From contig MFTV01000016.1 of the NCBI GenBank assembly GCA_001785445.1, positions 6,259 to 70,258 of the forward strand: a DNA stretch of 64,000 bases. The letters are read 5' to 3'. This DNA comes from Candidatus Nomurabacteria bacterium RIFCSPHIGHO2_02_40_30. GTDB lineage: Bacteria > Patescibacteriota > Minisyncoccia > Phycocordibacterales > UBA9973. A program made the position numbers and the translations under genes. The notes below the pieces were generated by a model. It searched no databases, was not told where the DNA came from, and worked only from the letters and a program-made list of their open reading frames with translations. Positions 10,018 to 63,913 of this stretch are shown here, piece by piece (the first letter of the stretch is position 1; the number at the start of each line of letters is the position of its first letter).

Positions 10018-10174
10018 GAAACTCGTCGAAGGCGCACTTTTTAGAAAGCCTTGCGCAGGAAATTAGAAAATAAAGAAAGTATTCTTTCTATTATTTTCTT
10101 GATTGACGAGGTTTCGCTCCGCAAGCTTGCGGAGATAGATTGCTTTATAAAAAGTTGTGCCAAGAAAGAGTTTC
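10018..10174. repeat. MITE-like intergenic element, copy A (7-bp terminal inverted repeats GAAACTC/GAGTTTC)
   Basis: Shares two near-identical blocks with copy B at 16981-17100, including the perfect 9-bp-stem palindrome CTCCGCAAGCTTGCGGAG. Copy A has a 56-bp internal insertion relative to B. Confidence 0.7.
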
Positions 10175-11551
10175 TTAGCAGTTAAGTGTCACGCTCTCCC
10201 CTTGCTCCGGCGCGTAAGCATTAATGCCTAAATTGTCGCGCAGTTTCTGCACTAAAAACAAAGCTCCCTTCGGCTCCCCCATGACCACAAAAACCTTTTT
10301 AACTGAATCTTGCATATCTTCGACAAAGTTAATTAATTCATCCGAATCTTTATGTCCCGAGTATCCTGAAATTGTGACAACGTGTGCTCGAACTACCACA
10401 TCTTCCCCTGTTATACGGACAGTCTTTACTCCCTCTTGAATTAAACGCCCCGGAGTGCCTACAGCCTGATAGCCGGTTAGAAGCAGGGTATTGTTGGGGT
10501 CCGGCAAGTAATGTCTTTCATGGTGCACAATGCGTCCCCCTGTGGACATGCCGCTCCCAGCGATAACTATTTTAGGATTTGGCACATTGCCGATCATTTT
10601 CGACTCTTCTGACTTCAGAGTACTATGCAGTCCCGAAAAATCAAATAAATACTTGTCGCTCTTCATCGCCTTTTGAGCATTTTCGTTGAAATAACTTTTA
10701 TATTGTTTAAAAACTTCAGTTAAACGAATAGCGAGTGGTGAGTCGAGGAAAATAGGCATAATGGGTATTCGGTTATTTTCCACCAAAGCATTAAGTTCAA
10801 AAAGAAGTTCCTGCGAGCGTTCGAGTGAAAAAGTGGGTATGATAAGTGTTCCCTTTCTTTTGTAGTTGTCTTCAATTATTTCCTCTAATAATTTCCTGCG
10901 GTCATCCCTAGACTCATGATTTCTGTCACCATACACAGACTCCATTACCAAATAATCCACACCGGCAACTTTTTCAGTATCCGGCAGGATCGGTGAAGGA
11001 CTGTTGCCCAAATCTCCGGTAAAAAGAATTTTCTTGCCATTATAAACAAACAAAATCATAGCGGAACCTAAAATATGACCGGCGTTAAAAAAAGAAACTT
11101 CCAGACTAGAAGTTATCTTTATTTTTTCATGATACTCAAAACCTTGCCAGAGAGATAAAGCCAGCTTAACATTCTCCGGCGTGTAAATTTTATCCAACCC
11201 CAAGTCTTTATTTTTCTGCAGTATCTGCATAGTGTCCTCGAGCATCGGCAATGCCAGCCCCTTGGTTGGCAGAATAGAATAAATTTTTCCGCGAAAGCCT
11301 TCACTGATGAGTTTGGGGATGCGGCCCAAATGGTCCACATGCGCATGAGTAATAAAAAGGATGTCCACTTCTTTCGGGTTATAAGTAAATGGGTCCCAGT
11401 TAATATCGTCTGCCAATTTTTCCCCTTGAGTCAGCCCACAGTCAACCAATATTTTTTTACCGTCGGCCTCAAAAAGGAAATTCGAGCCCGTGACTGAGCC
11501 TGTTCCCCCGTAAAAAGTTATTCTGACTGTTTTATTTGCTGTTTTTCCCAT
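10175..11551 (-). CDS. beta-CASP family MBL-fold ribonuclease (RNase J/TTHA0252-like)
   Basis: HAHVDH metallo-beta-lactamase motif and beta-CASP region. About 458 aa without the RNase J C-terminal domain. Confidence 0.7.
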   Translation of the reverse strand: MGKTANKTVRITFYGGTGSVTGSNFLFEADGKKILVDCGLTQGEKLADDINWDPFTYNPKEVDILFITHAHVDHLGRIPKLISEGFRGKIYSILPTKGLALPMLEDTMQILQKNKDLGLDKIYTPENVKLALSLWQGFEYHEKIKITSSLEVSFFNAGHILGSAMILFVYNGKKILFTGDLGNSPSPILPDTEKVAGVDYLVMESVYGDRNHESRDDRRKLLEEIIEDNYKRKGTLIIPTFSLERSQELLFELNALVENNRIPIMPIFLDSPLAIRLTEVFKQYKSYFNENAQKAMKSDKYLFDFSGLHSTLKSEESKMIGNVPNPKIVIAGSGMSTGGRIVHHERHYLPDPNNTLLLTGYQAVGTPGRLIQEGVKTVRITGEDVVVRAHVVTISGYSGHKDSDELINFVEDMQDSVKKVFVVMGEPKGALFLVQKLRDNLGINAYAPEQGESVTLNC

Positions 11552-13405: not shown

Positions 13406-16189
13406 TTACTCCATACTCTTATACCTGCCCATGATTTCGGCTTCTACTTCGGCGCGGTCGCGACCGTATTTTATATAAGAAAGTTCTTTCAAGCTGTCTA
13501 CTATACCTACAGTACCCTTTTCAGGGGCTAAAGTTTTCAAATTAAAAGGCTTGGTCGGCTGGCCATTGACCAGCATGCTCATGTAGGCATTGTAATTATC
13601 AAGTTTAGTTATATCTTGGGCCGTAAATTGAGGCTTAAATTTCGGCTCGAGAAAACTCGCATCTTCAGTGCCCACGCGGAATACCGCCATAGAGCCGACA
13701 TTGCCGAAAACAGCATTTTTAATATTTTCTTCCAATTGGGTAATATATTGATGAGCAATGTTAAGAGAAAGCCTGTATTTGCGAGCTTCAGACAAGATAG
13801 AAGCAATAGAATCAGTGGTAACATTCTGGAATTCGTCAATGTATAAATAAAAATCATTCATGGGTTTACCGAACATATCCACGCGCGAGAGCGCCGCCAT
13901 TTGAATCTTGCCCACCAGCACCAAACCAATCAAATTCGCATTAATATCTCCGAGCCTGCCCTTGGAAAGATTAACCAAGAGAATCTTTTTCTCATCCATT
14001 ATTTTACGAAAATTAAAAACAGAGTTCTGCTGCAGCACTACCGGACGCATAATGTCGTTGGAAATAAAATTATCAAATTTTGAAGAAATATACGGCACGA
14101 AGTTTGCCAAAGACTGGTCGCCTGTCGTCTGTTCGGCCGAAACCCAGAATTGTTTGATGATAGGATTCTGGCATCTAGCTAATTTCAAATCTCGAAATTG
14201 TTTATCAGCCAGCACTCTGGTAATCTCTAAGAGAGTCGAGCCCGACTCCGGATCCTCCATTACCAGAAAGGCGCTGTTTCTGAAATATTGTTCGAACATT
14301 GCCCCGCCACCGACTTTCATATCAAAAAGTTTGTTGAAGATTCCCATCATTTCATTTACCACGAAAGTTTTCTGCTCCGGATATTTCGGATCATACTCAA
14401 GCATATTTAGCCCAATAGGACGAGCTGTATAAGCAGGGTCGAAATATATTACATCATCAATACGTTCTTTTGGAATTCGCGACAAAATAGTCTGAATGTC
14501 TGTGCCGTGCGGGTCAATATAACAGCAACCGTCACCATTCTTGATGTCCTGCGTAATCATATTGAGCATAATATTGGTCTTGCCGGTGCCCGTCTGGCCT
14601 ATGCAATAGAAATGCCGCATCCGGTCTTCCCGAGCCATGTGGATTTCCGTGTCTTTGCCTCGGTAACTATTAACCCCTAAGACTATGCCGGCAGTACCCA
14701 TCTCAAGTGGCGCAGGGGCAATACCAGCCTTGGCTTCTTTCAGTTGGGGCTGGCTGCCTATGCCTATAGGGAAATGAAATACCGAAGCCAGCTCTTTCAA
14801 ATTCATAGGTAAAATTTTATCAGGTGAAAAAGAACGGTAGGAAAAGTCATGGAAAAGTTTTTTCAAAATACTGCCCTGAGCTTTTTCGAAAACAAAAGAT
14901 TGACTGGCGGCTTCGGAAAATTGATTAAAGGAGGACTCTATCTCGGTTAGTATCGCTTCTGCCCGCTCAATGCTCTCACCGGAAGCAATGACGCGAATAT
15001 TAGCCTTCATGATAGTGCTTTTCATCTTATTGCCTATTTTTTCGGTGGCGCCTTCATCCACCGCTTTTCGGCCCGGAGTGTATTTTTCATCTTTTTCCCC
15101 CTTTTTTTCTTTTACACCAAAAAGAAGCTCTTTGCCAACGGAGAGGAAAGCTTTATGAAATTTATAAAAATTATCCGACGCATGTTTGACAGACATACCA
15201 CTTTTTACGTCATCTAGAATCATATGGAATTCGTTTATGAATTTATTGCCCGCGGGCGCCACTACGAGCTGGATCGCGGCGCCTTCGCCTTTGGTCTTTA
15301 ACTTAGAGAAAACATTTAGTATCGTATTCATGGGGTCATGATCTATATTGTCGTAAGTCTTGATAGGCATAACTTCACGCTGTGAGAATGCGCCATAGGC
15401 TCCAGCTGAACCGCCTTTTTCGTTAAAAATATTATAGTCATCCGTAACTTCGCGGATTTTAGCATTATGATAAAAAGCTAAAATTTGTTTTTCAAAAAGT
15501 GAAAGATGTTTATTCGGAATTCCGGCATAGACAACCACTTCATCACTTTGGTTGCCAAGCGCAACTTCAAGAGTGAAGTAAATTTCTTTGGCATTACTTT
15601 TGCCTTCGGAAATAGACTGCATTCCTGCGTAAAATTGCTCCATCGCGCCGATGAATTCTTTAAAGCCTTTTGACTTGTCGGCTTCGTCCATCGGTGGTGG
15701 CAAAGTTATTTCAAAAAGGGTCATATGCAGAGACTTATACATGGGTGTACCTTCCTTGAAACCAATTTCTACTTGACCTGTTTTAAGATACTGAATCAAG
15801 ATTCTATGGAAATCGTCATCCACATGCGGGTTACCCATGGATTCTACAACTGCAAGCGCATTTTTAACCCCTTTTGTTATGACAATACCCAGAAGTTCTT
15901 CCATCACAGCATCATGTGGCTCGGGTTTCAGAGCCAGAACTATGTCTTCTGTTTGTTTTTTTTCTAAAATACTATTTTTATGTATTACCTCTTCTATGGG
16001 TATATTCTTGTATGCGCCTACCACGTCCTGCACTGCATTGTCTTTGGCATTCTCAAAGTGGCCTAGTGTTACTAGTTCTTCTTCGCGCTTTCTAACATGC
16101 GCGCGCAAATAGTCGAGCTCTTCTTCTGGAGTCCTAAACTTCGGCATTTCCCTAAAAAATGACGGATGCATTGCTCTTAAATTATACAC
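13406..16189 (-). CDS. Large P-loop ATPase, VirB4/TraG/HerA (AAA_10/DUF87)-like C-terminal half with uncharacterised about 500-aa N-terminal half
   Basis: 927 aa. Walker A GQTGTGKTNIML, Walker B YLYIDEFQNV, distal ARKYRLSLNIAHQ motif typical of VirB4/TraG-type ATPases. Confidence 0.55.
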   Translation of the reverse strand: MYNLRAMHPSFFREMPKFRTPEEELDYLRAHVRKREEELVTLGHFENAKDNAVQDVVGAYKNIPIEEVIHKNSILEKKQTEDIVLALKPEPHDAVMEELLGIVITKGVKNALAVVESMGNPHVDDDFHRILIQYLKTGQVEIGFKEGTPMYKSLHMTLFEITLPPPMDEADKSKGFKEFIGAMEQFYAGMQSISEGKSNAKEIYFTLEVALGNQSDEVVVYAGIPNKHLSLFEKQILAFYHNAKIREVTDDYNIFNEKGGSAGAYGAFSQREVMPIKTYDNIDHDPMNTILNVFSKLKTKGEGAAIQLVVAPAGNKFINEFHMILDDVKSGMSVKHASDNFYKFHKAFLSVGKELLFGVKEKKGEKDEKYTPGRKAVDEGATEKIGNKMKSTIMKANIRVIASGESIERAEAILTEIESSFNQFSEAASQSFVFEKAQGSILKKLFHDFSYRSFSPDKILPMNLKELASVFHFPIGIGSQPQLKEAKAGIAPAPLEMGTAGIVLGVNSYRGKDTEIHMAREDRMRHFYCIGQTGTGKTNIMLNMITQDIKNGDGCCYIDPHGTDIQTILSRIPKERIDDVIYFDPAYTARPIGLNMLEYDPKYPEQKTFVVNEMMGIFNKLFDMKVGGGAMFEQYFRNSAFLVMEDPESGSTLLEITRVLADKQFRDLKLARCQNPIIKQFWVSAEQTTGDQSLANFVPYISSKFDNFISNDIMRPVVLQQNSVFNFRKIMDEKKILLVNLSKGRLGDINANLIGLVLVGKIQMAALSRVDMFGKPMNDFYLYIDEFQNVTTDSIASILSEARKYRLSLNIAHQYITQLEENIKNAVFGNVGSMAVFRVGTEDASFLEPKFKPQFTAQDITKLDNYNAYMSMLVNGQPTKPFNLKTLAPEKGTVGIVDSLKELSYIKYGRDRAEVEAEIMGRYKSME

Positions 16190-16974
16190 TAAACCTTCGT
16201 CAAAATCTCTGGATCATTTTCTGTAATCAATATTGTGTGTTCAAAATGGGCGCTTCGTTTGCCATCAGCAGTGTGAAATGTATAGCCATCTTTATCTAAA
16301 GTTACATTTTTTGTGCCATTGTTGAGCATCGGCTCGATGGCTATGACCATCCCTGGCACAAGCTTGGCGCCTGTCCTGGCTTTGCCAAAATTCGGTATAT
16401 AAGGGTCCTCATGTATGGCTCGCCCCACTCCATGCCCAGCCAAGACTTCCACAATGCCGTATTTCTTTTTCTCTGATTTTCCTTTTGAACGAACAAACTG
16501 CTCTATGGCGTAGCCTATGTCCCCCACGGTGTTGCCAACTCTCGCCATATTTATACCCACTTGTAGAGCTTGCTCTGTCACTGCCATAAGCTCCATGCTT
16601 GCAGAGTTTACCTTGCCTACAGGCGCAGTGAGTGCCATGTCCGTAAAAAGCCCTTTGTGTTTTACCCCTAAATCAATAGACACAATATCTCCCTCTTTTA
16701 AAATTCTGTTTCCTTTAGGAATACCATGAACAACTTCGTCGTTGACTGACACACATAGTGATGCAGGGAACGGAATCTTAGCTCCTTCTGGTTTATAATT
16801 TAGAAATGCAGGCTCATCACCCATTTCTCTAATTAACTTAAGAGCATACAAGTCTAATTCTTTCGTGGAAACCCCCACGGCAATTTTGTCCCGCACTTTG
16901 TACAGGACAGTCGCTAAACGTTTCCCGCATTCTCGCAGTATTTTTATCTCTTCTGGTGTTTTGATTATTATCAT
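16189..16974 (-). CDS. map: Methionine aminopeptidase type I
   Basis: Full-length MAP with metal-binding D/H/E residues. 261 aa. Confidence 0.95.
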   Translation of the reverse strand: MIIIKTPEEIKILRECGKRLATVLYKVRDKIAVGVSTKELDLYALKLIREMGDEPAFLNYKPEGAKIPFPASLCVSVNDEVVHGIPKGNRILKEGDIVSIDLGVKHKGLFTDMALTAPVGKVNSASMELMAVTEQALQVGINMARVGNTVGDIGYAIEQFVRSKGKSEKKKYGIVEVLAGHGVGRAIHEDPYIPNFGKARTGAKLVPGMVIAIEPMLNNGTKNVTLDKDGYTFHTADGKRSAHFEHTILITENDPEILTKV

Positions 16975-16980
16975 AAATAT

Positions 16981-17100
16981 GAAACTCGTCGCAGGCGCAC
17001 TTTTTAGAAAGCCTTTCGCAGGGCGACGGCCCGAGAAGTTCGCTCCGCAAGCTTGCGGAGATAGATTGCTTTATAAAAAGTTGTGCCAAGAAAGAGTTTC
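16981..17100. repeat. MITE-like intergenic element, copy B
   Basis: Same termini and core as copy A. Begins 6 nt upstream of the map start codon and ends 4 nt after the pyrH stop. Confidence 0.7.
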
Positions 17101-17104
17101 ATAT

Positions 17105-17794
17105 TTATGAAATTATTGTCCCTAGAAATTGCTCCCCATTTAGACACTTGGTCAAATTATCAATCGGCTTGCCGTTCATTATCATTACTTGGATGCCTTC
17201 TTTTTGCGCTACTTCCGAAGCCACTGGGTCAAATGGAGAGCTTAGCCTCGAGGTCCATTGCGCAGGTATAATTGCTCGATAATCAGCCCAAGAAATTTTC
17301 TCAATTTTTTTGGCGTCCGGATTTACCTTGGGGTCTTTATCGTAGACATAATCAATATTGGAAAGATTTATGATTTTTTTGGCCTTCAAGTGCTTGGCCG
17401 CCAGCACGGCATCCCAGTCTGTGCTTTTCCCCGGCTCGTAGGCGGAGCCTATGACTACATTTTTTTCAAAAGAAAAAGGAACACCCAAGTTGGCTATCAC
17501 TTTATTATGAGCAACATCTGCGAAAATAACACGGAGCAACTCCGCATTGAGCTTCAGTGACGCAATGCCTATCCAGTCTAAGTCTTCACTAGTCGGACTC
17601 CCAAGTTCTTTGGCCACTTTATTATACCTGCGATTAATTTCTCCTCCGCCGGTTATAATTACAAATTTTTTACGCTGATTGTTATCTTTGGCAACATGCG
17701 AAAGTATTAAAGCTTTAAATTCTTTTAAAAAATCTATGTCTATGCTGTCGGGTACTATAAGTGAGCCGCCCAGTGAAATTATTATTGTTTCCAT
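17105..17794 (-). CDS. pyrH: UMP kinase, archaeal type
   Basis: IISLGGSLI amino-acid-kinase fold N-terminus. About 229 aa, typical of archaeal-type UMPK. Confidence 0.7.
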   Translation of the reverse strand: METIIISLGGSLIVPDSIDIDFLKEFKALILSHVAKDNNQRKKFVIITGGGEINRRYNKVAKELGSPTSEDLDWIGIASLKLNAELLRVIFADVAHNKVIANLGVPFSFEKNVVIGSAYEPGKSTDWDAVLAAKHLKAKKIINLSNIDYVYDKDPKVNPDAKKIEKISWADYRAIIPAQWTSRLSSPFDPVASEVAQKEGIQVMIMNGKPIDNLTKCLNGEQFLGTIIS

Positions 17795-17797
17795 GTG

Positions 17798-18385
17798 TTA
17801 ATACCCTAAAGCTTTAATAATATCTTTATGAACATCCGGTATAGATTGCTCTCCATTAATTGTGTAAATTGTGTAACCCGTTTTATTTTTGAAATAATTC
17901 ATCGCCGGAACCACATTGTTTATATATTCATCAAATCTTTTGGCAATGCCTTGTACTGTGTCATCACTTCTACCCCGTAATAAATTTCTGTTCATTGCTT
18001 CCTCTTTACCCACTTCAATATAAATAACACTTACTTTGTCGTGCTTGAAAAACTTCATCATTTGTTCAAAAAGTTCTGATTGCGGCACTGTGCGAGGATA
18101 GCCGTCAGCCACCAGATTCTTTTCGGCTGTCAGAGAAGAGATGAGGATGTTGGTAAAAATTGCATCGGTTAAAAAGTCCGCTACCAACTCTCCCCGAGCT
18201 ATGGTGTCTTTTATCAAATTTCCCGTATAACTCCCAGAAGCTATCAATGACCTGAAGCCTTCACCAGTGCCAGCATATACAGACTCTAATCCGCCTTTAG
18301 ACTTGAGATATTCCATCAAGAGCTTCACTTGTGTCCCCTTACCGGAACCCACTATTCCAAAAAATACAAATGCCTGTGGTTTCAT
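17798..18385 (-). CDS. adk: Adenylate kinase (start trimmed to MKPQAFVFFG)
   Basis: P-loop GIVGSGKGTQ. Confidence 0.8.
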   Translation of the reverse strand: MKPQAFVFFGIVGSGKGTQVKLLMEYLKSKGGLESVYAGTGEGFRSLIASGSYTGNLIKDTIARGELVADFLTDAIFTNILISSLTAEKNLVADGYPRTVPQSELFEQMMKFFKHDKVSVIYIEVGKEEAMNRNLLRGRSDDTVQGIAKRFDEYINNVVPAMNYFKNKTGYTIYTINGEQSIPDVHKDIIKALGY

Positions 18386-18407
18386 CTGTGTTATAATAAC
18401 ACAAATC

Positions 18408-19016: not shown

Positions 19017-19050
19017 GTCGTGAAATCACGCATATGCGTGATTTCACGAC
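19017..19050. repeat. 34-bp perfect palindrome P1 (GTCGTGAAATCACGCATATGCGTGATTTCACGAC)
   Basis: Perfect inverted symmetry, checked base by base. 37 bp downstream of the PaaX-like gene stop. Confidence 0.9.
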
Positions 19051-19087
19051 TATATCACACCATTAAAAACATACATATTACTACTTC

Positions 19088-19621
19088 CTACAAACCAAAG
19101 TAAGTCTTTAATTTCTTGTCGTCCAAAATTTTATCCACCTCCAAAATTTCTATGTGTCTACGAACTCCGAAAAAGTCAGCCACAAAGAGTATCTCCCCTT
19201 CGCATGGATACGGATAGATCCATGCGCTTTTTTGGAATTTGAAAAAGCCTAGATCTTTTAGTTTCCATCTAAATGCATCGCGCGCTTTTTTAAATCTAAT
19301 AGGCAGGTCATACATTACTAAACTCCATTTTCCGTCCCATTTCTTTGGATTTTTTATCATAACCTCATCAATCAAAATATCCTGCAATTTATTTTCGCCT
19401 TTTGGGGTAAGCACGTTTGTATTTTCCCCTGCTACATGCCTTATAAATCTATAGCGCCTAAATCCATAGAGAATCCGTCTAGCCTCCCGGCTTTCATGCA
19501 AATGGGGCGGTAACTTTTCTCCAAGCGCAATAGAACAAAGAATGCTTTGCGCCAAATTTATCCCCTCGCCTCCAGCGCTAAACAATTTCTTAAGTTTTAT
19601 GACATGTTTTCGTTCAACCAT
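19088..19621 (-). CDS. PaaX-family-like small regulator (wHTH plus WDGKW middle domain; Cas2/VapD-like motif V-MYD...Q-S-W)
   Basis: 177 aa. KKWDGKWSLVMYDLP...FQKSAWIYPYP resembles the PaaX middle region. Paralog of 39042-39446. Confidence 0.5.
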   Translation of the reverse strand: MVERKHVIKLKKLFSAGGEGINLAQSILCSIALGEKLPPHLHESREARRILYGFRRYRFIRHVAGENTNVLTPKGENKLQDILIDEVMIKNPKKWDGKWSLVMYDLPIRFKKARDAFRWKLKDLGFFKFQKSAWIYPYPCEGEILFVADFFGVRRHIEILEVDKILDDKKLKTYFGL

Positions 19622-19628
19622 ATGTATG

Positions 19629-19660
19629 TAGTGAATTCTAGCATATGCGTGATTTCACTA
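19629..19660. repeat. Imperfect palindrome P2 (shares 18-bp GCATATGCGTGATTTCAC with P1)
   Basis: Located 8 bp upstream of the PaaX-like start codon. Likely operator or cassette boundary. Confidence 0.8.
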
Positions 19661-19775
19661 CAAGAGAAAATGGAACGCAGATGAAGAGAGATTAATTTTT
19701 ATTGAAAATAGAAAAAGGTGTCGGCAACCTTTTTCAGATTACGCAACACCTTTGATATTTCTGCCGAATTTTTCT

Positions 19776-20009
19776 TCAGTGAACTGATACTAACTCGTCA
19801 GCTTTAACTTGAATGCGTTCACCTTGATAGGAGATCAAGACTCTTACGTGATGGCTAGAATATCCACAAAAGAAGCCCACGCAGACTGCTCTGGTTTTTG
19901 ATGCCTTGCTATACACCAAAAATTTTCTGATTCCTTCAGCAGTAGCTAAGGAAAAGGTAGTGCCCTTTTTTAGAAGCTTGAATTGTACATTCTTTGTTTT
20001 GCCTGCCAT
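19776..20009 (-). CDS. Hypothetical small protein (77-87 aa)
   Basis: ORF overlapping or abutting the stop of 20015-20431, suggesting translational coupling. No recognisable family. Confidence 0.4.
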   Translation of the reverse strand: MAGKTKNVQFKLLKKGTTFSLATAEGIRKFLVYSKASKTRAVCVGFFCGYSSHHVRVLISYQGERIQVKADELVSVH

Positions 20010-20014
20010 TTTGC

Positions 20015-20431
20015 CTACTCCTTCAAAATTTTGATGCACCGATCAAGTTTGCCGAGAGATGCCTTCATGTCACAAGAATCCATGATCTGTTTTCGAATGA
20101 ACTCTAAGATCTCATGAGCAAGAAAGTTCCAAGATTTTCGATTAGTCGATTCATTTTGATCATTATAGTGGTGAACAGAACCCCACCCATCTTTTAAAAA
20201 TATAAACATGTGTCCATCATGGGGTCCCAGGAGGCCCTGATATTCGAACAGGATGAATGGGTACCCCTGTTTTGTAGAATCATTGATTCTGGACCACATT
20301 CCAAATTCTGCCATGAATTGAACAACTTGAGTCAAAAACCCATCGCGCAGCTCATGAATCGCCTTTTTGCTATTGGCAATGTCACTAGAAAATGCTGATG
20401 GTACATCAAAAGCAACTTGTCTTGTTTCCAT
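20015..20431 (-). CDS. Hypothetical protein (138 aa), visibly GC-richer than surroundings
   Basis: Clean ORF, divergent from the TrmB-like gene. No recognisable motifs. Confidence 0.45.
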   Translation of the reverse strand: METRQVAFDVPSAFSSDIANSKKAIHELRDGFLTQVVQFMAEFGMWSRINDSTKQGYPFILFEYQGLLGPHDGHMFIFLKDGWGSVHHYNDQNESTNRKSWNFLAHEILEFIRKQIMDSCDMKASLGKLDRCIKILKE

Positions 20432-20594
20432 TGTCAGTCTCCTTTTTTTGGATAAAATCTTTGTTTTCTCAAGGAACTTTTATAAGACCCTAACATATTA
20501 GAAGCTAATTGTCAAGAAATTTTACCAATTTAATTTATTTCTAGCCATATATAATCAGGTTAAAAAGATATCTACATAATTTTGTTATATTTTA

Positions 20595-20623
20595 TTGACA
20601 CAAAACGAGTGTTGGTATATAAT
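20595..20623 (+). promoter_or_regulatory. Consensus sigma70 promoter TTGACA-17 nt-TATAAT
   Basis: Exact consensus hexamers with a 17-nt spacer, ending about 9 nt before the ATG at 20632. Confidence 0.7.
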
Positions 20624-20631
20624 GGCTAAAT

Positions 20632-21414
20632 ATGAAGGAACAATTAATAAAAATCAAAGAATTATTGAAAAATAGTGGTTTTTTAGACAAAGAAATAGCT
20701 ATATATTTGACTATTTTGGAACTTGGCAGAGGCACTGTGGCAGAGATATCTCGAAAAGCAGGCATTAATCGCTCGACTGGCTATGTGATTTTAGACAGTT
20801 TGGCTGGCAAGAACTTAGTAAGTATTTCCGGCAAAGAACCGAAGCAAGAATATGTAGCCCTTTCCCCTTCCAACCTTGTTGAGTACTTAAATAGGGAAGC
20901 ATCCAAACAAAAAAAGCTCACAGAAAGTGCAAGAGAGATTTTGCCAGAGCTGACTTCTATATACAATGTCGGAGACAGACCAAAAGTATTTTTTTACGAA
21001 GGTCTCGCTGGACTAGAACATGTGTATGAAGACTCGCTAACATCAAGTGGAGATATTTATTCCACTTCCACATATGAGGAAATGCACGAGACTCTGCCAA
21101 AATATTTTTCTACCTATTATGAACGCAGAGCCAAGAAAAAAATTTTCGTTCACACCTTTGTGGCTGATACTCCGCTCGCCCGAGAAAGAAAAGCGAACGA
21201 CATAAAAGAGTATCGCGATACTTCTCTCATTCCGCAAGATCAATTCCCTGTCCCAACTGACATAGAAATATATAACAATAAAGTTATGATTGCTTCCTGG
21301 AAAGAAAAGCTTGGCATCATAATTGAATCAGAAGAAATTGCCACAACCTTAAGAAGCGTATTCAAACTCGCTCTAATTGAAGCAAAGAAACACGATAAAA
21401 TTTTAGAGAATTAG
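20632..21414 (+). CDS. TrmB-family transcriptional regulator
   Basis: N-terminal wHTH (LTILELGRGTVAEISRKAGINRSTGYVILDSLAGKNLV) and a TrmB-type C-terminal domain. 260 aa. Confidence 0.7.
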   Translation: MKEQLIKIKELLKNSGFLDKEIAIYLTILELGRGTVAEISRKAGINRSTGYVILDSLAGKNLVSISGKEPKQEYVALSPSNLVEYLNREASKQKKLTESAREILPELTSIYNVGDRPKVFFYEGLAGLEHVYEDSLTSSGDIYSTSTYEEMHETLPKYFSTYYERRAKKKIFVHTFVADTPLARERKANDIKEYRDTSLIPQDQFPVPTDIEIYNNKVMIASWKEKLGIIIESEEIATTLRSVFKLALIEAKKHDKILEN

Positions 21415-21447
21415 TCGTGAATTTTCGCATATGCGAAAATTCACGAC
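21414..21447. repeat. 34-bp perfect palindrome P3 (GTCGTGAATTTTCGCATATGCGAAAATTCACGAC)
   Basis: Same outer arms and CATATGCG core as P1. Inner positions differ but remain self-complementary. Overlaps the TrmB stop codon. Confidence 0.9.
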
Positions 21448-21472: not shown

Positions 21473-22744
21473 TTAGTACTCCCTCATGGAGACTTGGGCG
21501 TCGATTTTTTTGATGAGGTCGAGGACGACGGAGACAACAATGAGGATGGACGTACCGCCTATTGCCAGAGATGCTATTCCTGTAGCGTATTGCATAATAA
21601 GCGGCAAGACAGCGATGAAGCCGAGGAAAACTGCGCCTAGAAGCGTGATGCGAGAGAGAACATTGGAAATATAGCTAGAAGTCGGCACTCCAGGGCGAAT
21701 CCCTGGAATGAAGGCGCCATTTTTCTGCAAATTTGTAGACAATGCTTCGGGGTCGAAGGTGACAGCTGTATAGAAGTAAGTAAAAAGAAATACAAGAATA
21801 AAATAGAGCACGGCATATAGAATTGATGTCTGATTGAATAAGGTAAATATTTGAGAAATTTTCAGGAGAATAGCATTGCTGAATCGCCCGAGGAAAGCGC
21901 CAATCATTTGCGGAAAAGAAAGAATAGAGAGAGCGAATATTATCGGTATCACTCCGGCTTGGTTTACGCGTAGTGGCAGATAGGTTGAGCCACCGCCGTA
22001 CATCTTCATGCCCCGCACCCGCTTGGCATAGGTGACAGGGATAGGGCGTTCAGCTTCAGTTACCAAAACAATGCCGGCGATAACCAGCACCCCCACTACA
22101 GCAAATACTAGGTAAAGCGGAATTTGAGAAACATCGAAAGTGAAAACAAGCTGGCTGACTTCTGCCGGAAGTCTAGAAACAATGCCGGCAAAAATTATAA
22201 GCGATACGCCATTGCCGATGCCAAATTCCGACATAAGCTCGCCAAGCCACATTACAACTACTGACCCTGCGACCACGATGAATAAGTTGGTAATGCGGTC
22301 AAAAGTTGTTAAATTTACTAAAATACTTTGGTTCTCAAGAATAGCCAGAAGAGTAAAGCCTTGAATAGCGGCAAGTGGTATGGTTAAAAGTCTGGAATAT
22401 TGAGTAAACTTTTTCCTGCCAGCTGCGCCCTCTTCATGGTAAATCTTCTTTAAGCTTGGGACCATAATAGTCAGAAGCTGCATGATTATTGAGCCGGTAA
22501 TATATGGTCCGACACCAAGCATGATTATAGATAAATTGGAAAGTCCGCCGCCGGAAAATATATTTAAAATGCCAAAGAATTGGTTATTGGATAGGAAACG
22601 ATTAAGTTCGAGCGTATCAATGCTTGGGATCGGAATAGTGGAGAGCAGTCTGAATATTATCAACGAAAAAAGCACAAAGAGAACTCTCTTCCTTAGAGTC
22701 GTATCTGTCCAAACTAATTTCAGTTTATTTAAAAAATTCTGCAT
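21473..22744 (-). CDS. secY: Preprotein translocase SecY
   Basis: 10-TM SecY, 423 aa. Confidence 0.95.
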   Translation of the reverse strand: MQNFLNKLKLVWTDTTLRKRVLFVLFSLIIFRLLSTIPIPSIDTLELNRFLSNNQFFGILNIFSGGGLSNLSIIMLGVGPYITGSIIMQLLTIMVPSLKKIYHEEGAAGRKKFTQYSRLLTIPLAAIQGFTLLAILENQSILVNLTTFDRITNLFIVVAGSVVVMWLGELMSEFGIGNGVSLIIFAGIVSRLPAEVSQLVFTFDVSQIPLYLVFAVVGVLVIAGIVLVTEAERPIPVTYAKRVRGMKMYGGGSTYLPLRVNQAGVIPIIFALSILSFPQMIGAFLGRFSNAILLKISQIFTLFNQTSILYAVLYFILVFLFTYFYTAVTFDPEALSTNLQKNGAFIPGIRPGVPTSSYISNVLSRITLLGAVFLGFIAVLPLIMQYATGIASLAIGGTSILIVVSVVLDLIKKIDAQVSMREY

Positions 22745-23059
22745 TTATTTTATGATTATATGCCTGCCTTTTATGCCGAGACGCTTGCGAATTTCAGAAA
22801 ATTTTTCTCGCTGGCCTTTTTCTCCGGCTATGATTTTACTTACCGTCAAAATAAAGGGTTTCTTTTTTGACTTAAAACTATAGCCACGATTCTTCGGCAA
22901 TTTCTTTATGATATCACGAAGTTCCGGACGGCGCTTATTGCCGGCGCGCGCTGTCTGCCCCTTGCCTCCGCGGCCGGAAGTCTTCGCATGCTTGCCTCCG
23001 CGACCTACCAGCCGGTCTTTTTTATTCTTGTGTTGTCTCTTTAATTTATGTATTTGCAT
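22745..23059 (-). CDS. rplO: 50S ribosomal protein L15 (short form)
   Basis: GRGGKHAKTSGRGGKGQ Gly/Arg-rich N-terminus. Sits between S5 and secY. Confidence 0.8.
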   Translation of the reverse strand: MQIHKLKRQHKNKKDRLVGRGGKHAKTSGRGGKGQTARAGNKRRPELRDIIKKLPKNRGYSFKSKKKPFILTVSKIIAGEKGQREKFSEIRKRLGIKGRHIIIK

Positions 23060-23060: not shown

Positions 23061-23639
23061 TTATTTTTCTTCTTCGACTAAGGCTTTCGGTAAAACGACC
23101 TCTTTGGTATCAATAACAATTGCTTCCGCAGGAATTTTTCCGGATTTTGTTGAAATGACGGAAAGCGCTTGCATTACTGCTTTAGAATTATTTAATTTAT
23201 TTTTACTGTTGGATAAAATTTTTCCGGTAATATCTTTCATGCCGGAGAGTTTGATAATATCACGAACAACCGACCCCGCCACCAAGCCTCGACCTTTGTT
23301 GGGCAAAAGCTTCACATAGGAACTTGAGAATTTAGCAGAAAGTTCATGAGGGATAGACATAGTCTTGGTTAGGTTTAATTTAACCATATTTTTCTTAGCA
23401 TTTCGTACAGCCTTATTTATGGCTAATGCCGTGTCCCCCGCTTTCCCAAGCCCAAGTCCGATGCGTCCCTTTTTGTCTCCGGCGACCAGTGCCACAGAGA
23501 AAGAGAATCTACGCCCGCCAGCCACCACTCGAGTTACTCGGCGAATATTTAGAATCTTCTGGTCAAACTCTGATTTCACTCTGCCAAAAGAGGAGCCTTT
23601 TCTATTATTCTTTTTTTCGTTTGCCTTTTCCATATACAA
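23061..23639 (-). CDS. rpsE: 30S ribosomal protein S5
   Basis: RRVTRVVAGGRRFSFSVALVAGDKKGRIGLGLGKA. Confidence 0.9.
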   Translation of the reverse strand: MYMEKANEKKNNRKGSSFGRVKSEFDQKILNIRRVTRVVAGGRRFSFSVALVAGDKKGRIGLGLGKAGDTALAINKAVRNAKKNMVKLNLTKTMSIPHELSAKFSSSYVKLLPNKGRGLVAGSVVRDIIKLSGMKDITGKILSNSKNKLNNSKAVMQALSVISTKSGKIPAEAIVIDTKEVVLPKALVEEEK

Positions 23640-30656: not shown

Positions 30657-30685
30657 GATTTGTTTCCCAGATAGAGGTTTAGCCT

Positions 30686-31300
30686 CTATCTGGCTACTAT
30701 CTCCACCAAAGTTCCACGCTTGCCGGCAATTGCTCCTTTTACGAGCATCAGATTATTCTCTGCATCCACGAAAACAACCTTCAAATTTTTTTGGGTGATG
30801 CGATCAGAGCCCATGCGTCCGGCCATTCTCATCCCTTTTGGAACATGAGTTCGAAGTCCGCCTCCGATAGACCCCGGCTCCCTTTCAGAGTGTTTCTGCC
30901 CGTGGGTACGCGGACCACCGGAGAAACCATGGCGCTTGACCACGCCTTGAAAACCCTTTCCCTTGGACACACTGGTGACTTGAAGCTTGTCTCCGGGAGA
31001 AAAGGCCGACACATCAATAACTCGTCCTTCTTTTACCTCTACTGTGTCACTAGGTTTAAGTCTGAATTCTTTAAGAGTTTTATAAAACCCGCCCTTCATG
31101 GATTTGATTTGCGCTTTATTGATCCTCTCTTTTTTCTGAATGCCGTAACCTACTTGCACAGAGTTGTAGCCATCTTTTTCCTTTTCGAAAACTCTAGTCA
31201 CGGTTACCGGCCCCGCCGAAAGTATGGTAACAGGAATGACTGTCCCATCTTGCTCGAAGTACTCTGTCATATTTTCTTTTGTAGCCAGAATGAATTTCAT
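30686..31300 (-). CDS. rplC: 50S ribosomal protein L3
   Basis: 204 aa, first large gene of the S10 operon after rpsJ. Confidence 0.9.
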   Translation of the reverse strand: MKFILATKENMTEYFEQDGTVIPVTILSAGPVTVTRVFEKEKDGYNSVQVGYGIQKKERINKAQIKSMKGGFYKTLKEFRLKPSDTVEVKEGRVIDVSAFSPGDKLQVTSVSKGKGFQGVVKRHGFSGGPRTHGQKHSEREPGSIGGGLRTHVPKGMRMAGRMGSDRITQKNLKVVFVDAENNLMLVKGAIAGKRGTLVEIVAR

Positions 31301-38989: not shown

Positions 38990-39028
38990 TAGTGAATTGC
39001 TAGAATTACATATATGCGCGATAGCGTA
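38990..39028. repeat. CATATGCG-family repeat P4 (TAGTGAATTGCTAG...ATATGCGCGATAGCG)
   Basis: Left half matches P2 (TAGTGAATTCTAG). ATATGCGC-ATAGC is repeated at 39444-39460. Confidence 0.6.
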
Positions 39029-39041
39029 AATGTGTAAATAC

Positions 39042-39446
39042 TTAAATATTCCCCTCTTTTCCTGTATACGATTTCGCTAGCTTAAAAGTTTTCAGGTGAG
39101 CTTTGAGTCCAATAGCTTTTACATAATCCAAAAAATCTTTTGGCAGTGGCGATGGTCCTACCCACACACTTCTTTGAATCATTTCGTAATTAAATTTCTG
39201 CAAGTGTCGACGAAACCAGTCTCTTTCTTTTTTCTTATCATCTGTAATGTCATACATTACTATCAGATTTTTAGGTGCATCTTTAGTAAAATGACAAGAA
39301 AATGCTAGGTGATAAAATTTCCTTTTGCGATCTTTCTTCTTTGCCCGACTCTCATCAAGCCAAATAGGTAAACCAAAAGCGTTAACTTTGACTCCTTTGT
39401 AGTTAAAAGTTCTTCCCATGGGTAAATTATACCTCCGACTACACAT
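39042..39446 (-). CDS. PaaX-like/Cas2-like small protein, paralog of 19088-19621
   Basis: 134 aa. LIVMYDITDDKKKERDWFRRHLQKFNYEMIQRSVWVGPSP aligns with WSLVMYDLPIRFKKARDAFRWKLKDLGFFKFQKSAWIYPYP. Confidence 0.5.
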   Translation of the reverse strand: MCSRRYNLPMGRTFNYKGVKVNAFGLPIWLDESRAKKKDRKRKFYHLAFSCHFTKDAPKNLIVMYDITDDKKKERDWFRRHLQKFNYEMIQRSVWVGPSPLPKDFLDYVKAIGLKAHLKTFKLAKSYTGKEGNI

Positions 39447-39460
39447 ATGCGCTATAGCAG
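39444..39460. repeat. CATATGCG-family repeat P5 (CATATGCGCTATAGCAG), includes the start codon of 39042-39446
   Basis: Direct repeat of the core of P4. Confidence 0.6.
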
Positions 39461-39494
39461 ATATATGTATAATTATTTTTGAGTTCTAAAAACT

Positions 39495-60862: not shown

Positions 60863-61285
60863 TTACTCTGCAACTTTTTCTTCTGTTTCTGTGTCTAGGG
60901 TAGATGAGCGCATCTTGCGACGAACATCTTTGACTGCCTTAGTGCGAATATAGTAAAGCTTTGACCTCTTGGCATGAGACTTTTTAGTCGTTTCAATTTT
61001 GTCTATCATTGGAGAGTATAATGGAAAGATTCTTTCCACTCCGACGCCTGAAGCCACTTTGCGTACAGTAAAAGTTGCGCCAATTTCTTTGCCATGTTTT
61101 CGTCCGAGCACCATGCCCTCAAAAGCCTGCAAGCGATATTTGCTTGCCCCGCCCTTGGCGGGGCTTTTTTCGTCTAAAATTTTGGACGAAACACGCACCA
61201 CATCACCGGCTCTAAAATCAAGCTTGGCGCGAGCCTCCATGTCTACTGGACTAAGTTTAATATTGCCAATCTTATTTCCTGTCAT
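60863..61285 (-). CDS. rplS: 50S ribosomal protein L19
   Basis: FTVRKVASGVGVERIFPLYSPMIDKIE. Confidence 0.9.
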   Translation of the reverse strand: MTGNKIGNIKLSPVDMEARAKLDFRAGDVVRVSSKILDEKSPAKGGASKYRLQAFEGMVLGRKHGKEIGATFTVRKVASGVGVERIFPLYSPMIDKIETTKKSHAKRSKLYYIRTKAVKDVRRKMRSSTLDTETEEKVAE

Positions 61286-61324
61286 AGTTGGTACAATCTA
61301 ACATAAAAAAATTTCAAAAGCAAT

Positions 61325-63031
61325 TTAAGAAACCTCTTCTTGATAACACTTTTCGCAGTATACTATCTCTAGTCTTTCGGGCGCGTAAGAAGTTTTTATG
61401 GGAGTACTGCATTTCATACAGATACGATCGTAAAGCTTTGGCAGTTGAATTTTACCAAAACGTTCTTTGTATCTACACTCTGGGCAGCTTCTCGGTATAG
61501 GAAGATTAAATTTTCGCAAGAAAGAAAGCTCATTGGGCACAATTTTGAAACCTCTTTTGCAAATAGCGCACTCTATAGTATCTTCTAGAATGCTATCTGA
61601 TACATTGTTTATCATATCCGGCAAATCTTCTGCTTTTATCGTAATTGTATAGACCGGCTTCTCGGATTCAAACCAAGTAAATCCTTTTTGTAATGCTTGA
61701 CTTTCATTTAATGGAAAATATTCTTGCGCCATTGTTTCATTGTAGCCAAATGGCGATATTATCGTAGGGAAAAATTCTCCATATTTATATACCCCGCCTT
61801 TTTCATCTACATATGGATTTTTATCCATGTCAGAAATAATTTTAGCTTTTAGTTTCTCATATTCTTCTTTTGAGTACTCTTTATTTAAAATACAATATTG
61901 TTTCTTCTTGAGATTTATACAGCCAAAAGAATTTTTACAGCCATTAATGGCATACGTGCAGTATTCCAGATTCATTGCATTTGGAAAACACTCATCGCTA
62001 AAACGACAATTCGAAGCTCCTTCACCAACAATACTACACTCATAAATCTTTTCTGAGTTGTTGCCCCAGCCAGTATAATCATAGGCGTCTTTAGTCTTGG
62101 GTAGTGTCAAAAATTGAGCAAATCGAGTATCTTCTGCACCTGAACATATATATACATCGTGAGCATTTTTTGACTGAAAAACATATTCACCAGTAATATT
62201 TTTGTTTCGACTATCTCCCCTATAAAACCTACGTGGAAATTGTAAGGAAAAATTTTCTAATTCTTTTAAAGTTGATTGAACAGTCTGCCATGAAGCCATG
62301 TTAATCTCGACCATTTTTTCCTTGTATTCTTCTTTAGTGTATTGAACATTCCAAATACAATAATTTTTCTTGCGAAGGTTTACACAACCAAAACAATTGG
62401 AGCAATCAAAACAATTTCTGGAAAAATACACATCATGACAATCTCCACAATCAATAGTGAAATGACAATTATACAATTTGTGTCCACCAATAGACCCATA
62501 ACAAAGTTCAGATTCATGTAGATAATAACAGTCTACACAGTCACGAATTTTAGCTAACATCATGCTATAAAGAGAATTTTCTACGTAATCAGCATAGTAA
62601 GTAAAGTAAGAATTTTTCTGCCAACCTGTAAAATTTGTGTAGGGAGTGTTAATATTTGAAGTGTAGGTGCATTGAAGCGCCATATAAGGAGTTTGGTGTG
62701 TTAATTCTTCCATTTGTTCAAAAAAAGTTCTTGATGGATCATAATCCATTCCATATTCAGTCCCATCCCAAGTATCTCCCCACCAGCAAGGATTGCAATA
62801 AACTTTTATTTTCTTTTCATTAGGGTACATTGAGATTACACTTTTTCCACAAAGATCACATAGTCTTTTATAAAGTGTGCGCACATTTAAAAAAGAAAGA
62901 CGCCTTATCAACCGGCATTCCGAACACCAAGTCGGTGGCGGGACTTTCATTTTTTTGTAGAAATTAAAATCTTCCGATTCTAGGGTGAAGTCTTTTTTGC
63001 AGTTCTGGCATTTTTTAGTCTCTGCTTCCAT
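61325..63031 (-). CDS. Cysteine-rich multi-zinc-ribbon protein, unknown function
   Basis: 568 aa. Similar CxxC-x(17-20)-CxxCR...CxxC...YCxxC modules at both termini. Central internally duplicated Cys cluster (KNYCIWNVQYTKEEYKEKM vs KQYCILNKEYSKEEYEKLK). Confidence 0.55.
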   Translation of the reverse strand: MEAETKKCQNCKKDFTLESEDFNFYKKMKVPPPTWCSECRLIRRLSFLNVRTLYKRLCDLCGKSVISMYPNEKKIKVYCNPCWWGDTWDGTEYGMDYDPSRTFFEQMEELTHQTPYMALQCTYTSNINTPYTNFTGWQKNSYFTYYADYVENSLYSMMLAKIRDCVDCYYLHESELCYGSIGGHKLYNCHFTIDCGDCHDVYFSRNCFDCSNCFGCVNLRKKNYCIWNVQYTKEEYKEKMVEINMASWQTVQSTLKELENFSLQFPRRFYRGDSRNKNITGEYVFQSKNAHDVYICSGAEDTRFAQFLTLPKTKDAYDYTGWGNNSEKIYECSIVGEGASNCRFSDECFPNAMNLEYCTYAINGCKNSFGCINLKKKQYCILNKEYSKEEYEKLKAKIISDMDKNPYVDEKGGVYKYGEFFPTIISPFGYNETMAQEYFPLNESQALQKGFTWFESEKPVYTITIKAEDLPDMINNVSDSILEDTIECAICKRGFKIVPNELSFLRKFNLPIPRSCPECRYKERFGKIQLPKLYDRICMKCSTPIKTSYAPERLEIVYCEKCYQEEVS

Positions 63032-63698: not shown

Positions 63699-63801
63699 AA
63701 AATTTGTGGCTACAAATAATTTCTCGCCGTCGCTCGAAATTTTCGCAGCCCGCCCCTCGTGGTTTTGCGTGTTCGCAAAACATCACTGCGGTCGGCACAA
63801 A

Positions 63802-63833
63802 AGTTAGAAAAATAAAGCAGTTTATTTTTCTAA
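63802..63833. terminator. 14-bp-stem hairpin flanked by T-runs on both strands (bidirectional terminator)
   Basis: GTTAGAAAAATAAA-gcag-TTTATTTTTCTAAC. Confidence 0.55.
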
Positions 63834-63839
63834 CTTTTG

Positions 63840-63911
63840 TGCCCCCGGCAAGAATCGAACTTACATTAGAAGGTTAGAAACCTTCTGTTCTATCCATTAA
63901 ACTACGGGGGC
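63840..63911 (-). tRNA. tRNA-Arg (TCT)
   Basis: Acceptor GCCCCCG/CGGGGGC, anticodon loop TTTCTAA. Confidence 0.8.
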
Positions 63912-63913
63912 AG

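Follow-up and report, generated by a model that had tools for sequence, protein, structure and literature searches.

What purpose is served by two perfect 34-bp palindromes that lie just beyond secY in a ribosomal-protein operon, and to which protein, if any, do they belong? The question is raised by a 64-kb stretch of DNA (hereafter, the window) from an AT-rich member of the Candidate Phyla Radiation (CPR; Patescibacteria), whose nearest named relatives are Candidatus Nomurabacteria. The two palindromes, P1 and P3, and an imperfect third copy, P2, lie around a PaaX-like gene for a protein of 177 amino acids (aa) with a Cas2-like domain. The reading that we favor, with a probability of roughly 0.55, is that P1, P2, and P3 are sites of this 177-aa protein, a predicted autorepressor, and that the copies at the 3' ends of genes would act as barriers. 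More generally, a small Cas2-like family, each gene apparently bracketed by its own palindrome and spread across the CPR, is better supported than an island bounded by palindromes. The four elements concerned are the following.

19017-19050, both strands: P1, a 34-bp palindrome between the convergent stops of the PaaX-like gene and cmk
19088-19621, minus strand: the PaaX-like (PaaX_M/Cas2-like) gene, 177 aa, between P1 and P2
19628-19661, minus strand: P2, an imperfect palindrome, putative promoter-operator of the PaaX-like gene
21414-21447, both strands: P3, a 34-bp palindrome between the convergent stops of the TrmB gene and secY

P1 (GTCGTGAAATCACGCATATGCGTGATTTCACGAC) and P3 (GTCGTGAATTTTCGCATATGCGAAAATTCACGAC) are perfect palindromes of 17+17 nt, as a preliminary description of this DNA had recognized, and P2 (GTAGTGAATTCTAGCATATGCGTGATTTCACTAC) is, again in agreement with it, degenerate: its inner arm is imperfect, and the change in its outer letters (GTAG/CTAC) is symmetrical in itself. 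Two positional details had also been given, of which the overlap of P3 with the TrmB stop codon stands (it amounts to 1 nt), while the spacing of 8 bp between P2 and the ATG does not, as the 34-bp P2 stops 6 bp before it. P1 is 37 bp from the stop codon of the PaaX-like gene and 42 bp from that of cmk, and P3 is 25 bp from the secY stop. When the motif GTGAA-N5-GCATATGC-N5-TTCAC was searched for with up to three mismatches, exactly three matches were obtained in the 64 kb, namely P1, P2, and P3, against 0.03 expected, and none of 100 shuffles reached three. Hairpins of at least 12 pairs number five in all in the window, P1 and P3 among them. As RNA, both fold on either strand into 15-bp hairpins of -24 to -26 kcal/mol (P1, -26 kcal/mol on each strand), with z-scores of -6.7 to -8.5. 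Neither is followed by a U-tract or T-run on either strand, and neither appeared in the terminator scan. An Rfam scan of the region gave nothing at gathering score, the sole weak match having E=0.58.

The evidence that ties these palindromes to a protein comes from relatives. A scan of species-representative genomes with the family alignment yielded 50 loci, among them the related Nomurabacteria-type loci (L005-L010, L012-L014, and the closest, L154-L156, whose proteins are 76-82% identical to the 177-aa protein), given as 13. Every orthologous locus carries one copy of the palindrome 6-9 bp before the ATG of the PaaX-like gene and a second one 12-68 bp past its stop, and metagenome loci likewise have the motif both upstream and downstream of the gene. 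The same arrangement extends across the CPR: in 39 of 48 family loci, the sequences before and after the gene agree at 19 or more of 24 nt, as compared with 26 of 725 control open reading frames (ORFs) drawn from the same loci as the family members. The shared flank sequence is a lineage-specific palindrome of ~30-50 bp, for example, ATCACAAATTTTTGCGATCGCAAAAATTTGTGAT in L025, CTGTACGTCTATGAACGGCCGTTCATAGACGTACAG in L042, and TAACTATAACTCTGGATATCCAGAGTTATAGTTA in L051. Judged by record titles, the lineages include Saccharibacteria, Gottesman-, Curtiss-, Davies-, Vogel-, Giovannoni-, and Woesebacteria, as well as others. A third copy lies one gene away in L024, L025, L026, and L036.

The window itself holds a second, independent instance, in which a shorter relative of the 177-aa protein is enclosed by palindromes of another type.

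39007-39036, both strands: downstream palindrome of the paralogue, 30 bp, 5 bp past the stop codon
39042-39419, minus strand: stand-alone Cas2-like/PaaX_M paralogue, 125 aa, with TATAAT 6 nt before the ATG
39440-39469, both strands: upstream palindrome of the paralogue, 30 bp, spanning the -35/spacer region

The paralogue passes the Pfam cutoffs for PaaX_M (45.5 bits) and CRISPR_Cas2 (PF09827; 30.9 bits). It has no recognizable winged helix or helix-turn-helix (HTH), and no cas1 or CRISPR (clustered regularly interspaced short palindromic repeats) array lies nearby. Its palindrome type, TACAYAT-N4-GCKATMGC-N4-ATRTGTA, has two matches in the window, where none is expected. Bracketing in the orthologues, in loci across the CPR, and at this paralogue indicates that the palindromes belong to the PaaX_M/Cas2-like family. 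The view of the preliminary description that they are selected rather than due to chance is thus supported, with a link to a protein added. TrmB was considered as a palindrome binder and rejected, as it occurs in only three of these loci (the window, L010, and L013). No published description of such palindrome-bracketed Cas2-like genes was found in the searchable literature, and no title or abstract on the CPR was found in the literature on PaaX-like proteins.

The upstream copy has a further property, in that it coincides with a promoter. On the gene strand, P2 with its flank reads tcTTGTAGTGAAATCACGCATATGCTAGAATTCACTACATACATATG. On the minus strand, it contains TTGTAG (19663-19658), a 17-nt spacer, and an extended -10 element, TGc-TAGAAT (19640-19635), followed by 11 nt to the ATG. 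The layout cTTGTnG-17-TGnTA[AG]AAT recurs 6-9 nt before the ATG in L005-L017, L154-L156, and the metagenome loci. Among orthologous upstream copies, the gene-proximal arm keeps TGn and TA[AG]AAT (or TATAAT, TACAAT) at 9-11 nt from the ATG, and the distal arm is variable. The palindrome of the paralogue, like those of distant lineages, spans the -35/spacer region, and the -10 box is 6-10 nt from the ATG. With a -10 box so near the ATG, transcripts from this promoter would start downstream of the palindrome, which favors an operator in duplex DNA, and autorepression. An earlier suggestion that the palindromes could be the operators of an autoregulated operon is supported as regards P2, the putative operator/promoter of the PaaX-like gene, whose layout is seen in all orthologues. 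There is a precedent in Escherichia coli, where PaaX represses its own promoter, Px, by binding TGATTC-N27-GAATCA and hindering RNA polymerase (PMC9493321).

The 177-aa protein begins with a winged helix and ends with a PaaX_M (Cas2-like) domain, the latter matching PF20803 at 67.4 bits (cutoff 24); the assignments of this protein as PaaX-like and of its neighbor to the TrmB family (TrmB HTH, 48.3 bits; cutoff 25.6) were therefore right in the preliminary description. The 178 homologues, mostly of ~175-190 aa, all contain PF20803, and several are named from Parcubacteria, Nomurabacteria, or Paceibacterota. Residues W95, W99, Y104, D105, P107, Q130, and S132 are invariant among them, and the pattern LVxYDxP...QxSxW resembles beta-1/alpha-1 of Cas2. 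Cas2 models match the 177-aa protein weakly (PF09827, 17.8 bits against a cutoff of 23.8; TIGR01573, 18 against 24.5). In an AlphaFold2 (AF2) model, the winged helix occupies residues 20-85 with a predicted local distance difference test (pLDDT) score of 80-89; Foldseek searches with this model gave weak winged-helix matches only (E above 0.05). Two more specific identities were rejected. The protein is not PaaX proper, since it scores 18.3 bits against the TIGR02277 cutoff of 264.55 and has no PaaX_C match; nor is it linked to phenylacetate genes, for in the window and the 13 related loci there are no paa genes nearby, the neighbors being secY, cmk, adk, the amino-acid kinase, and map. It is not a CRISPR Cas2 either, as it falls below the Cas2 cutoffs, the window has no repeat-spacer array, and no cas genes occur among the annotated neighbors.

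How the palindromes vary is informative about what is being recognized. Over 103 unique sites, of which 38 are perfect 34-mers, the two arms pair at 83.8% of positions, versus 72.3% in shuffles. Covariation between the arms is 0.312, versus 0.119 in shuffles and 0.045-0.078 with slid partners, and in 500 shuffles no value was as high; the symmetry-preserving variation noticed earlier in P1 and P3 is thus confirmed on a much larger set. Outer letters (GT[N]GTGAA; GTGAA versus GTTAA) are common to the sites within one sample or lineage, which is the expected product of a co-evolving homodimer. The inner 2-5 nt, on the other hand, vary among the sites of one genome yet remain self-complementary. 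P1 has ATCAC/GTGAT and P3 has TTTTC/GAAAA as inner arms, and a population with GCTGTGAA outer arms has inner TTCTAG/CTAGAA, TCCTAG/CTAGGA, TTTTCG/CGAAAA, and TTCTCG/CGAGAA. The symmetry of the inner arms points to hairpin selection or to symmetrizing mutation, such as quasi-palindrome template switching. The downstream copy is often the symmetrized half of the upstream copy (e.g., P1 of the window, L008, and L009), and in L012, it is approximately the reverse complement of its upstream copy.

Copies also occur away from the gene. A metagenome scan with the exact motif returned 98 contigs; the motif was absent from viral contigs, as were relatives of the family. According to the family hidden Markov model, 24 of the metagenome sites adjoin a PaaX_M gene. 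The remaining copies, not beside a family gene, are termed orphan sites here, after removal of GC-rich chance matches and duplicates, and they are placed as follows.

Between convergent genes: 19 orphan sites
Between tandem genes: 17 orphan sites
Between divergent genes: 1 orphan site
Inside an ORF: 6 orphan sites
At a contig edge: 8 orphan sites

Convergent positions make up 51% against a background of 20% (p=2e-5), and divergent ones 3% against 22% (p=0.001); the median distance is 23 bp past a stop codon. Recurrent neighbors are a 570-aa cysteine-rich protein (with a treble-clef zinc-finger match), RmuC, CysS, DapF, Fmt, and UvrC, and the palindrome 3' of the 570-aa gene is retained in many species with differing inner arms. 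The preliminary description had held that frequent copies at unrelated genes would speak for generic 3' elements; in related genomes, copies do stand behind unrelated housekeeping genes, yet the motif is still tied to the PaaX_M family. Copy number is 3 in 64 kb, there are no extra copies in ~170 kb of related loci, and single metagenome samples contain at least 8-12 sites with one common outer-arm type. An activator-type phasing upstream of rplS was rejected, as the palindrome centers lie at about -71 and -76 with no fixed phase.

Two observations on the orphan sites may be added. The cysteine-rich protein, of 565-590 aa, is their commonest neighbor (15 sites at its 3' end or promoter, in L064, L066, L074, L087, L093, L145, and others), and its gene may belong to the palindrome regulon; the homologue in the window (61325-63031, minus strand; 41% identical, with a weak zinc-finger match) has no palindrome. 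Adjacent doublets 40-75 bp apart are found in L068 (529-596), L113 (4748-4850), L075 (2200-2302), and L024 (6685-6790). The outer arms of the L068 doublet differ (GTTGGTAA versus GTGGTGAA), as if the sites of two paralogous proteins had been juxtaposed.

From these site positions and promoter overlaps, we infer protein binding, repression, and barrier function as follows. A dimer of the 177-aa protein would bind P1, P2, and P3, reading the outer arms (GTnGTGAA) and the core (GCATATGC) and leaving the inner 2-5 nt free as long as the arms are complementary. As P2 spans the core promoter of the gene itself, the bound dimer would exclude RNA polymerase, that is, act by negative autoregulation in the manner of E. 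coli PaaX at Px. P1 is the conserved second copy past the stop; P1 and P2 together bracket the gene, an arrangement characteristic of the entire family. P3 is an extra copy, like those found 3' of other genes in relatives, mostly between convergent genes. The 3' copies may serve as bidirectional transcription barriers, through the RNA hairpin, a protein roadblock on the DNA, or both, and would shield the gene of the regulator, along with a few others, from read-through.

Several points weigh against this proposal. A classical repressor has no need of a second site beyond the stop codon of its gene, and what the 3' copies do is deduced from position alone. Without a U-tract, neither P1 nor P3 qualifies as a canonical intrinsic terminator. 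Within one genome, the two differ at three inner positions per arm, each copy being perfectly symmetric, and such symmetric differences mean that a single dimeric protein is insufficient as an explanation. The Cas2-like domain, rather than the HTH, may be what links the protein to the palindromes, since the paralogue without a winged helix is still bracketed by them. The C-terminal domain is poor in the AF2 model (pLDDT below 50), the alignment being too shallow to model it, and a search by sequence for a solved relative of the 177-aa protein found none. Finally, the junction between the 570-aa gene and rplS has a palindrome in L087, L093, and L116 and none in the window (~61285-61328), and such presence/absence also fits a mobile element.

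Before the rivals are weighed, it is necessary to establish what varies at the locus. The preliminary description had seen a 2.4-kb insert bounded by P1 and P3 and had proposed that relatives be compared for an uninterrupted, empty site. No such empty site of the whole P1-P3 unit was found: every relative has the PaaX-like gene, P1, and P2, whether it carries cargo or not, and only TrmB, p138, and p77 (the latter two being the small ORFs of the window) are variable. In related loci, the PaaX-like gene always follows secY, and then usually come a reversed cmk-like kinase, adk, the amino-acid kinase, and map; identity across these loci is comparable for the PaaX-like protein (62-82%) and adk (56-67%). 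This order marks the PaaX-like gene and cmk as old residents of the junction. Variation is confined to the slot that separates secY from the PaaX-like gene, and the contents of this slot are as follows.

Empty (74-263 bp): L005, L006, L009, L012, and L155
Asparaginase-like gene: L154
Orphan ORFs: L007, L008, L014, and L156
TrmB with differing orphan ORFs: the window, L010, and L013

TrmB is 91% identical in L010 and 75% in L013 and is absent from the other related loci; it scores 28.2 against 600 for the NF040851 equivalog. Its neighbors are an XRE-type HTH protein and a 104-aa ORF in L010 and p138 and p77 in the window. As had been said of the two small ORFs before, neither can be assigned to a family: p138 and p77 gave nothing in Pfam, NCBIfam, or PADLOC, and among 5.8 billion indexed proteins, the former matched no entry but itself and the latter matched none. 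A full HMMER scan of 1.84 billion representatives found one credible distant homologue of p138, P0122, on a 1.4-kb contig whose neighboring ORFs have no Pfam match. The predicted structure of p138 is a generic alpha-beta sandwich. The slot is thus a place to seek lineage-specific cargo genes.

P3 lies at the secY end of this slot. No relative has a P3-like copy after secY, including L010 and L013, where secY and TrmB abut or overlap. The left half of P3 with its flank, cccTTGTCGTGAATTTTCGCATATGC, is of the promoter type and matches the PaaX promoter copy of L007; in the cargo-free L155 and L009, the PaaX promoter copy lies ~40-65 bp after secY, which is comparable to the 25 bp of P3. Cargo may conceivably have entered at a palindrome, leaving one copy on each side, a suggestion that we make with low confidence, or P3 may simply be a gained orphan copy. 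Four further origins of the locus were rejected. An invertible switch is contradicted by the gene orientation relative to secY, which does not change among the 13 related loci, and there is no invertase; an integron-like cassette array, by the third copy on the secY side, which occurs in the window only and not in other cargo-bearing loci; a CRISPR locus, by the lack of an array and cas1; and a phage or plasmid origin, by the absence of the motif and of relatives from viral contigs and by a GC content that matches the flanks.

Could the palindromes instead be low-copy, semi-selfish, hairpin-forming extragenic elements, with the Cas2-fold protein as their single-copy cognate nuclease or maintenance factor, in the way of repetitive extragenic palindromes (REPs) and REP-associated tyrosine transposases (RAYTs)? 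We consider this unlikely. In 39 of 48 loci, a lineage-specific palindrome encloses its gene, as REP/REPIN sequences do RAYT genes, and protein and palindrome co-vary by lineage and are inherited vertically, as for REPIN-RAYT; however, the protein itself is not an HUH/Y1 transposase, having PaaX_M and Cas2 matches only, even if its invariant YD motif falls at the Cas2 active-site position and the 125-aa Cas2-like paralogue without an HTH is bracketed as well. Extra copies sit in "safe" 3' intergenic spacers, there are doublets (L113, L075, and L068), and presence/absence is seen at an orthologous junction, P3 having no counterpart in the relatives examined. Against these stand the low copy number given above and the palindromes by the 570-aa gene, RmuC, CysS, and Fmt, which are kept at the same junction across species with differing inner arms and so suggest function, not recent transposition. 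Downstream copies are often symmetrized halves, and long a-palindrome-a^c singlets are known for REPs (PMC3337134), while the functional promoter conserved in upstream copies argues the other way. The insert of the preliminary description, which would make the 2.4 kb in the secY-adk junction a mobile or regulatory island whose recombination ends are P1 and P3, is very improbable, and the P1-P3 unit as an island is already refuted. The slot is indeed a hotspot whose cargo differs among genomes, and P3 with its left flank resembles a PaaX promoter copy and is located where the cargo-free L155 and L009 have that promoter, so that cargo may have duplicated the palindrome. Yet the PaaX-like gene, P1, and P2 are in all relatives, other cargo-bearing loci have no P3-like copy, and the P1-P3 module contains no recombinase, integrase, or transposase and has the same GC content as its flanks; viral contigs yielded no relatives. 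In addition, a crossover predicts asymmetric hybrid sites, whereas the outer arms of P2 and the whole of P3 are symmetric.

An action on RNA has to be set beside the proposed DNA operator. The Cas2/ferredoxin-like fold is common to RNA-binding and RNase proteins, and the protein might bind RNA hairpins at the 5' and 3' ends of secY read-through transcripts, controlling the translation or stability of its own and other mRNAs. The stable hairpins and the inner-arm covariation fit pairing, and, as the PaaX-like gene is co-directional with secY, read-through transcripts would hold both hairpins. We nevertheless regard it as distinctly improbable: in several lineages, the promoter lies within the upstream palindrome or overlaps it, so that transcripts from this promoter would have no upstream hairpin, and the winged helix and the PaaX precedent point to duplex DNA. 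Scarcely any weight attaches, in our judgment, to generic hairpin terminators or to sites of chromosome organization or fork arrest (parS/matS-like or RTP/Ter-like). The 3'-end and convergent-gene bias would suit either, and RTP of Bacillus subtilis, a small dimer of winged-helix subunits, controls its own gene through adjacent Ter sites. Generic terminators, however, would have neither a conserved 18-nt sequence, nor the promoter of one family, nor lineage co-variation, and the U-tract after the hairpins is missing; perfect palindromes are non-polar, unlike Ter; and, in contrast to parS or matS, the sites avoid both coding sequence and divergent regions.

Which known systems does the favored autorepressor resemble? 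PaaX itself (E. coli, Pseudomonas; PDB 3L09), a GntR-type repressor of the phenylacetate catabolon, has the same winged helix and Cas2-like dimerization domain (PF20803). Its operator in E. coli, TGATTC-N27-GAATCA, is, like GTGAA-N18-TTCAC here, a long split palindrome, and its autorepression by occlusion of its own promoter (PMC9493321) is what we propose, by analogy, for the 177-aa protein. Unlike PaaX, the latter has only 177 aa, no C-terminal phenylacetyl-CoA-binding domain, and no paa genes nearby, its YDxP...QxSxW motif is nearer to Cas2, and a second site follows its gene, while others lie at the 3' ends of further genes. Systems of the REP/REPIN-RAYT kind (Bertels and Rainey 2011, PMC3116915; PMC3337134) share 20-40-bp hairpin-forming extragenic palindromes at gene 3' ends, a flanked single-copy cognate gene, clade-specific pairing, vertical inheritance, and symmetrized long singlets; they differ in that RAYT is an HUH tyrosine transposase, in contrast to a winged helix with a Cas2-like fold, and in that REPs have tens to hundreds of copies, as opposed to few copies here, of which the upstream one is a promoter. 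Cas2 has the same ferredoxin-like fold with a conserved Asp after beta-1, and the gene here is likewise flanked by partly palindromic repeats of ~30-36 bp; unlike the case of CRISPR Cas2, there is no cas1, array, or other cas gene, and the two "repeats", ~0.4-0.6 kb apart, enclose the gene itself. REP mRNA stabilizers and CcpA/LacI-type roadblocks are similarly stop-proximal specific sites or stable hairpins enriched between convergent genes, the differences being that here the same sequence is also the operator of the presumed binder's own promoter and that there is no U-tract.

Many gene families of the CPR have no assigned function, and we know of no experimentally mapped regulator-site pair in these lineages. 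The present locus yields, from sequence alone, a predicted regulator-site pair with lineage-specific sites, a promoter architecture (extended -10, near-leaderless), and a small target set, and the copies at 3' ends hint at a way in which such reduced genomes may set off their transcription units in the absence of canonical terminators. A rather unlikely but more far-reaching possibility is that of an undescribed partnership between a Cas2-fold protein and palindromes in the CPR, either as an analogue of REP/RAYT with a Cas2-like nuclease moving or maintaining the palindromes, or as a protein-dependent 3'-end terminator/insulator. If either form were true, a cas2-like gene within ~30-36-bp palindromic repeats would bear on how Cas2 met repeats; if the REP/RAYT-like form were true, a protein-palindrome partnership would have arisen independently on the Cas2 fold, a point of interest for the origin of CRISPR adaptation modules. 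The palindromes also matter in practice, as they break assemblies. The window is 100% identical to contigs of GCA_036736305.1 and GCA_001787075.1, and in the latter (L002 4271-4288, corresponding to window ~21334-21423) a run of N lies exactly at P3, with ~90 bp of the TrmB 3' end missing. Evidently, the perfect palindrome broke the assembly, and as a result of the gap, TrmB is mis-called there as a 247-aa protein without a Pfam match.

The other features of the region, in the order of the minus strand, are as follows.

23061-23639, minus strand: rpsE, of the spc-type operon
22745-23059, minus strand: rplO, of the spc-type operon
21473-22744, minus strand: secY (338.8 bits), upstream boundary of the variable slot
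20632-21414, plus strand: TrmB-family HTH regulator, 260 aa (Pfam TrmB)
20595-20623, plus strand: TrmB promoter of sigma-70-type consensus, 12/12 consensus matches, 8 nt to the ATG
20015-20431, minus strand: p138, a near-orphan ORF with AGGAG 5' of its start, variable cargo
19776-20009, minus strand: p77, an orphan ORF of 77 aa with AAGGAG before the ATG at 20009, variable cargo
19711-19735, minus strand: terminator-like hairpin with a T-run, closing the p138-p77 unit, upstream of P2
18408-18974, plus strand: cmk, archaeal-type CMP kinase (TIGR02173), convergent with the PaaX-like gene
17798-18385, minus strand: adk
17105-17794, minus strand: amino-acid kinase
16189-16974, minus strand: map

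This order amends the preliminary description in some respects. The gene that adjoins P1 is cmk (102.2 bits against a TIGR02173 cutoff of 102.1) and not adk. The TTGACA-17-TATAAT promoter ascribed to TrmB is present in full. The small ORF described as having about 80 codons exists, its most likely start being the ATG that gives 77 aa; it is listed alternatively as 87 aa with a GTG start at 20039. The two small ORFs are not visibly richer in GC, the measured value being ~0.40 versus 0.36-0.48 in the flanks.

Some minor observations concern other repeats and promoters of the window. A near-perfect palindrome of 50 bp, GGCACAAAAGTTAGAAAAATAAAG-CA-GTTTATTTTTCTAACTTTTGTGCC, at 63794-63843 adjoins two tRNA genes (63840-63986, minus strand) and is unrelated in sequence to P1, P2, and P3. 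Another palindrome type occurs in the ribosomal-protein operon, as CCAGATAGAGGTTTAGCCTCTATCTGG at 30667-30693 of the window and as AGAGCTTTAGACTCTATCTAGAGTCTAAAGCTCT twice in L005 (933-966 and 5416-5449), with one copy between rplO and secY; these may be the site set of another factor. A two-block repeat of ~150 bp at 10020-10175 and 16975-17100, with an exact repeat of 62 bp (TTCGCTCCGCAAGCTTGCGGAGATAGATTGCTTTATAAAAAGTTGTGCCAAGAAAGAGTTTC), lies, in one copy, in the spacer between map and the amino-acid kinase; it has no Rfam match and could be a small RNA or a regulatory element. The adk and cmk genes are divergent, with start codons 22 bp apart (18386-18407). In TrmB, the PaaX-like gene, and the 125-aa paralogue, the -10 box is 6-11 nt from the ATG in each case; leaderless or near-leaderless mRNAs seem to be common in this genome, p138 and p77 having, by contrast, Shine-Dalgarno sequences of the AGGAG type.

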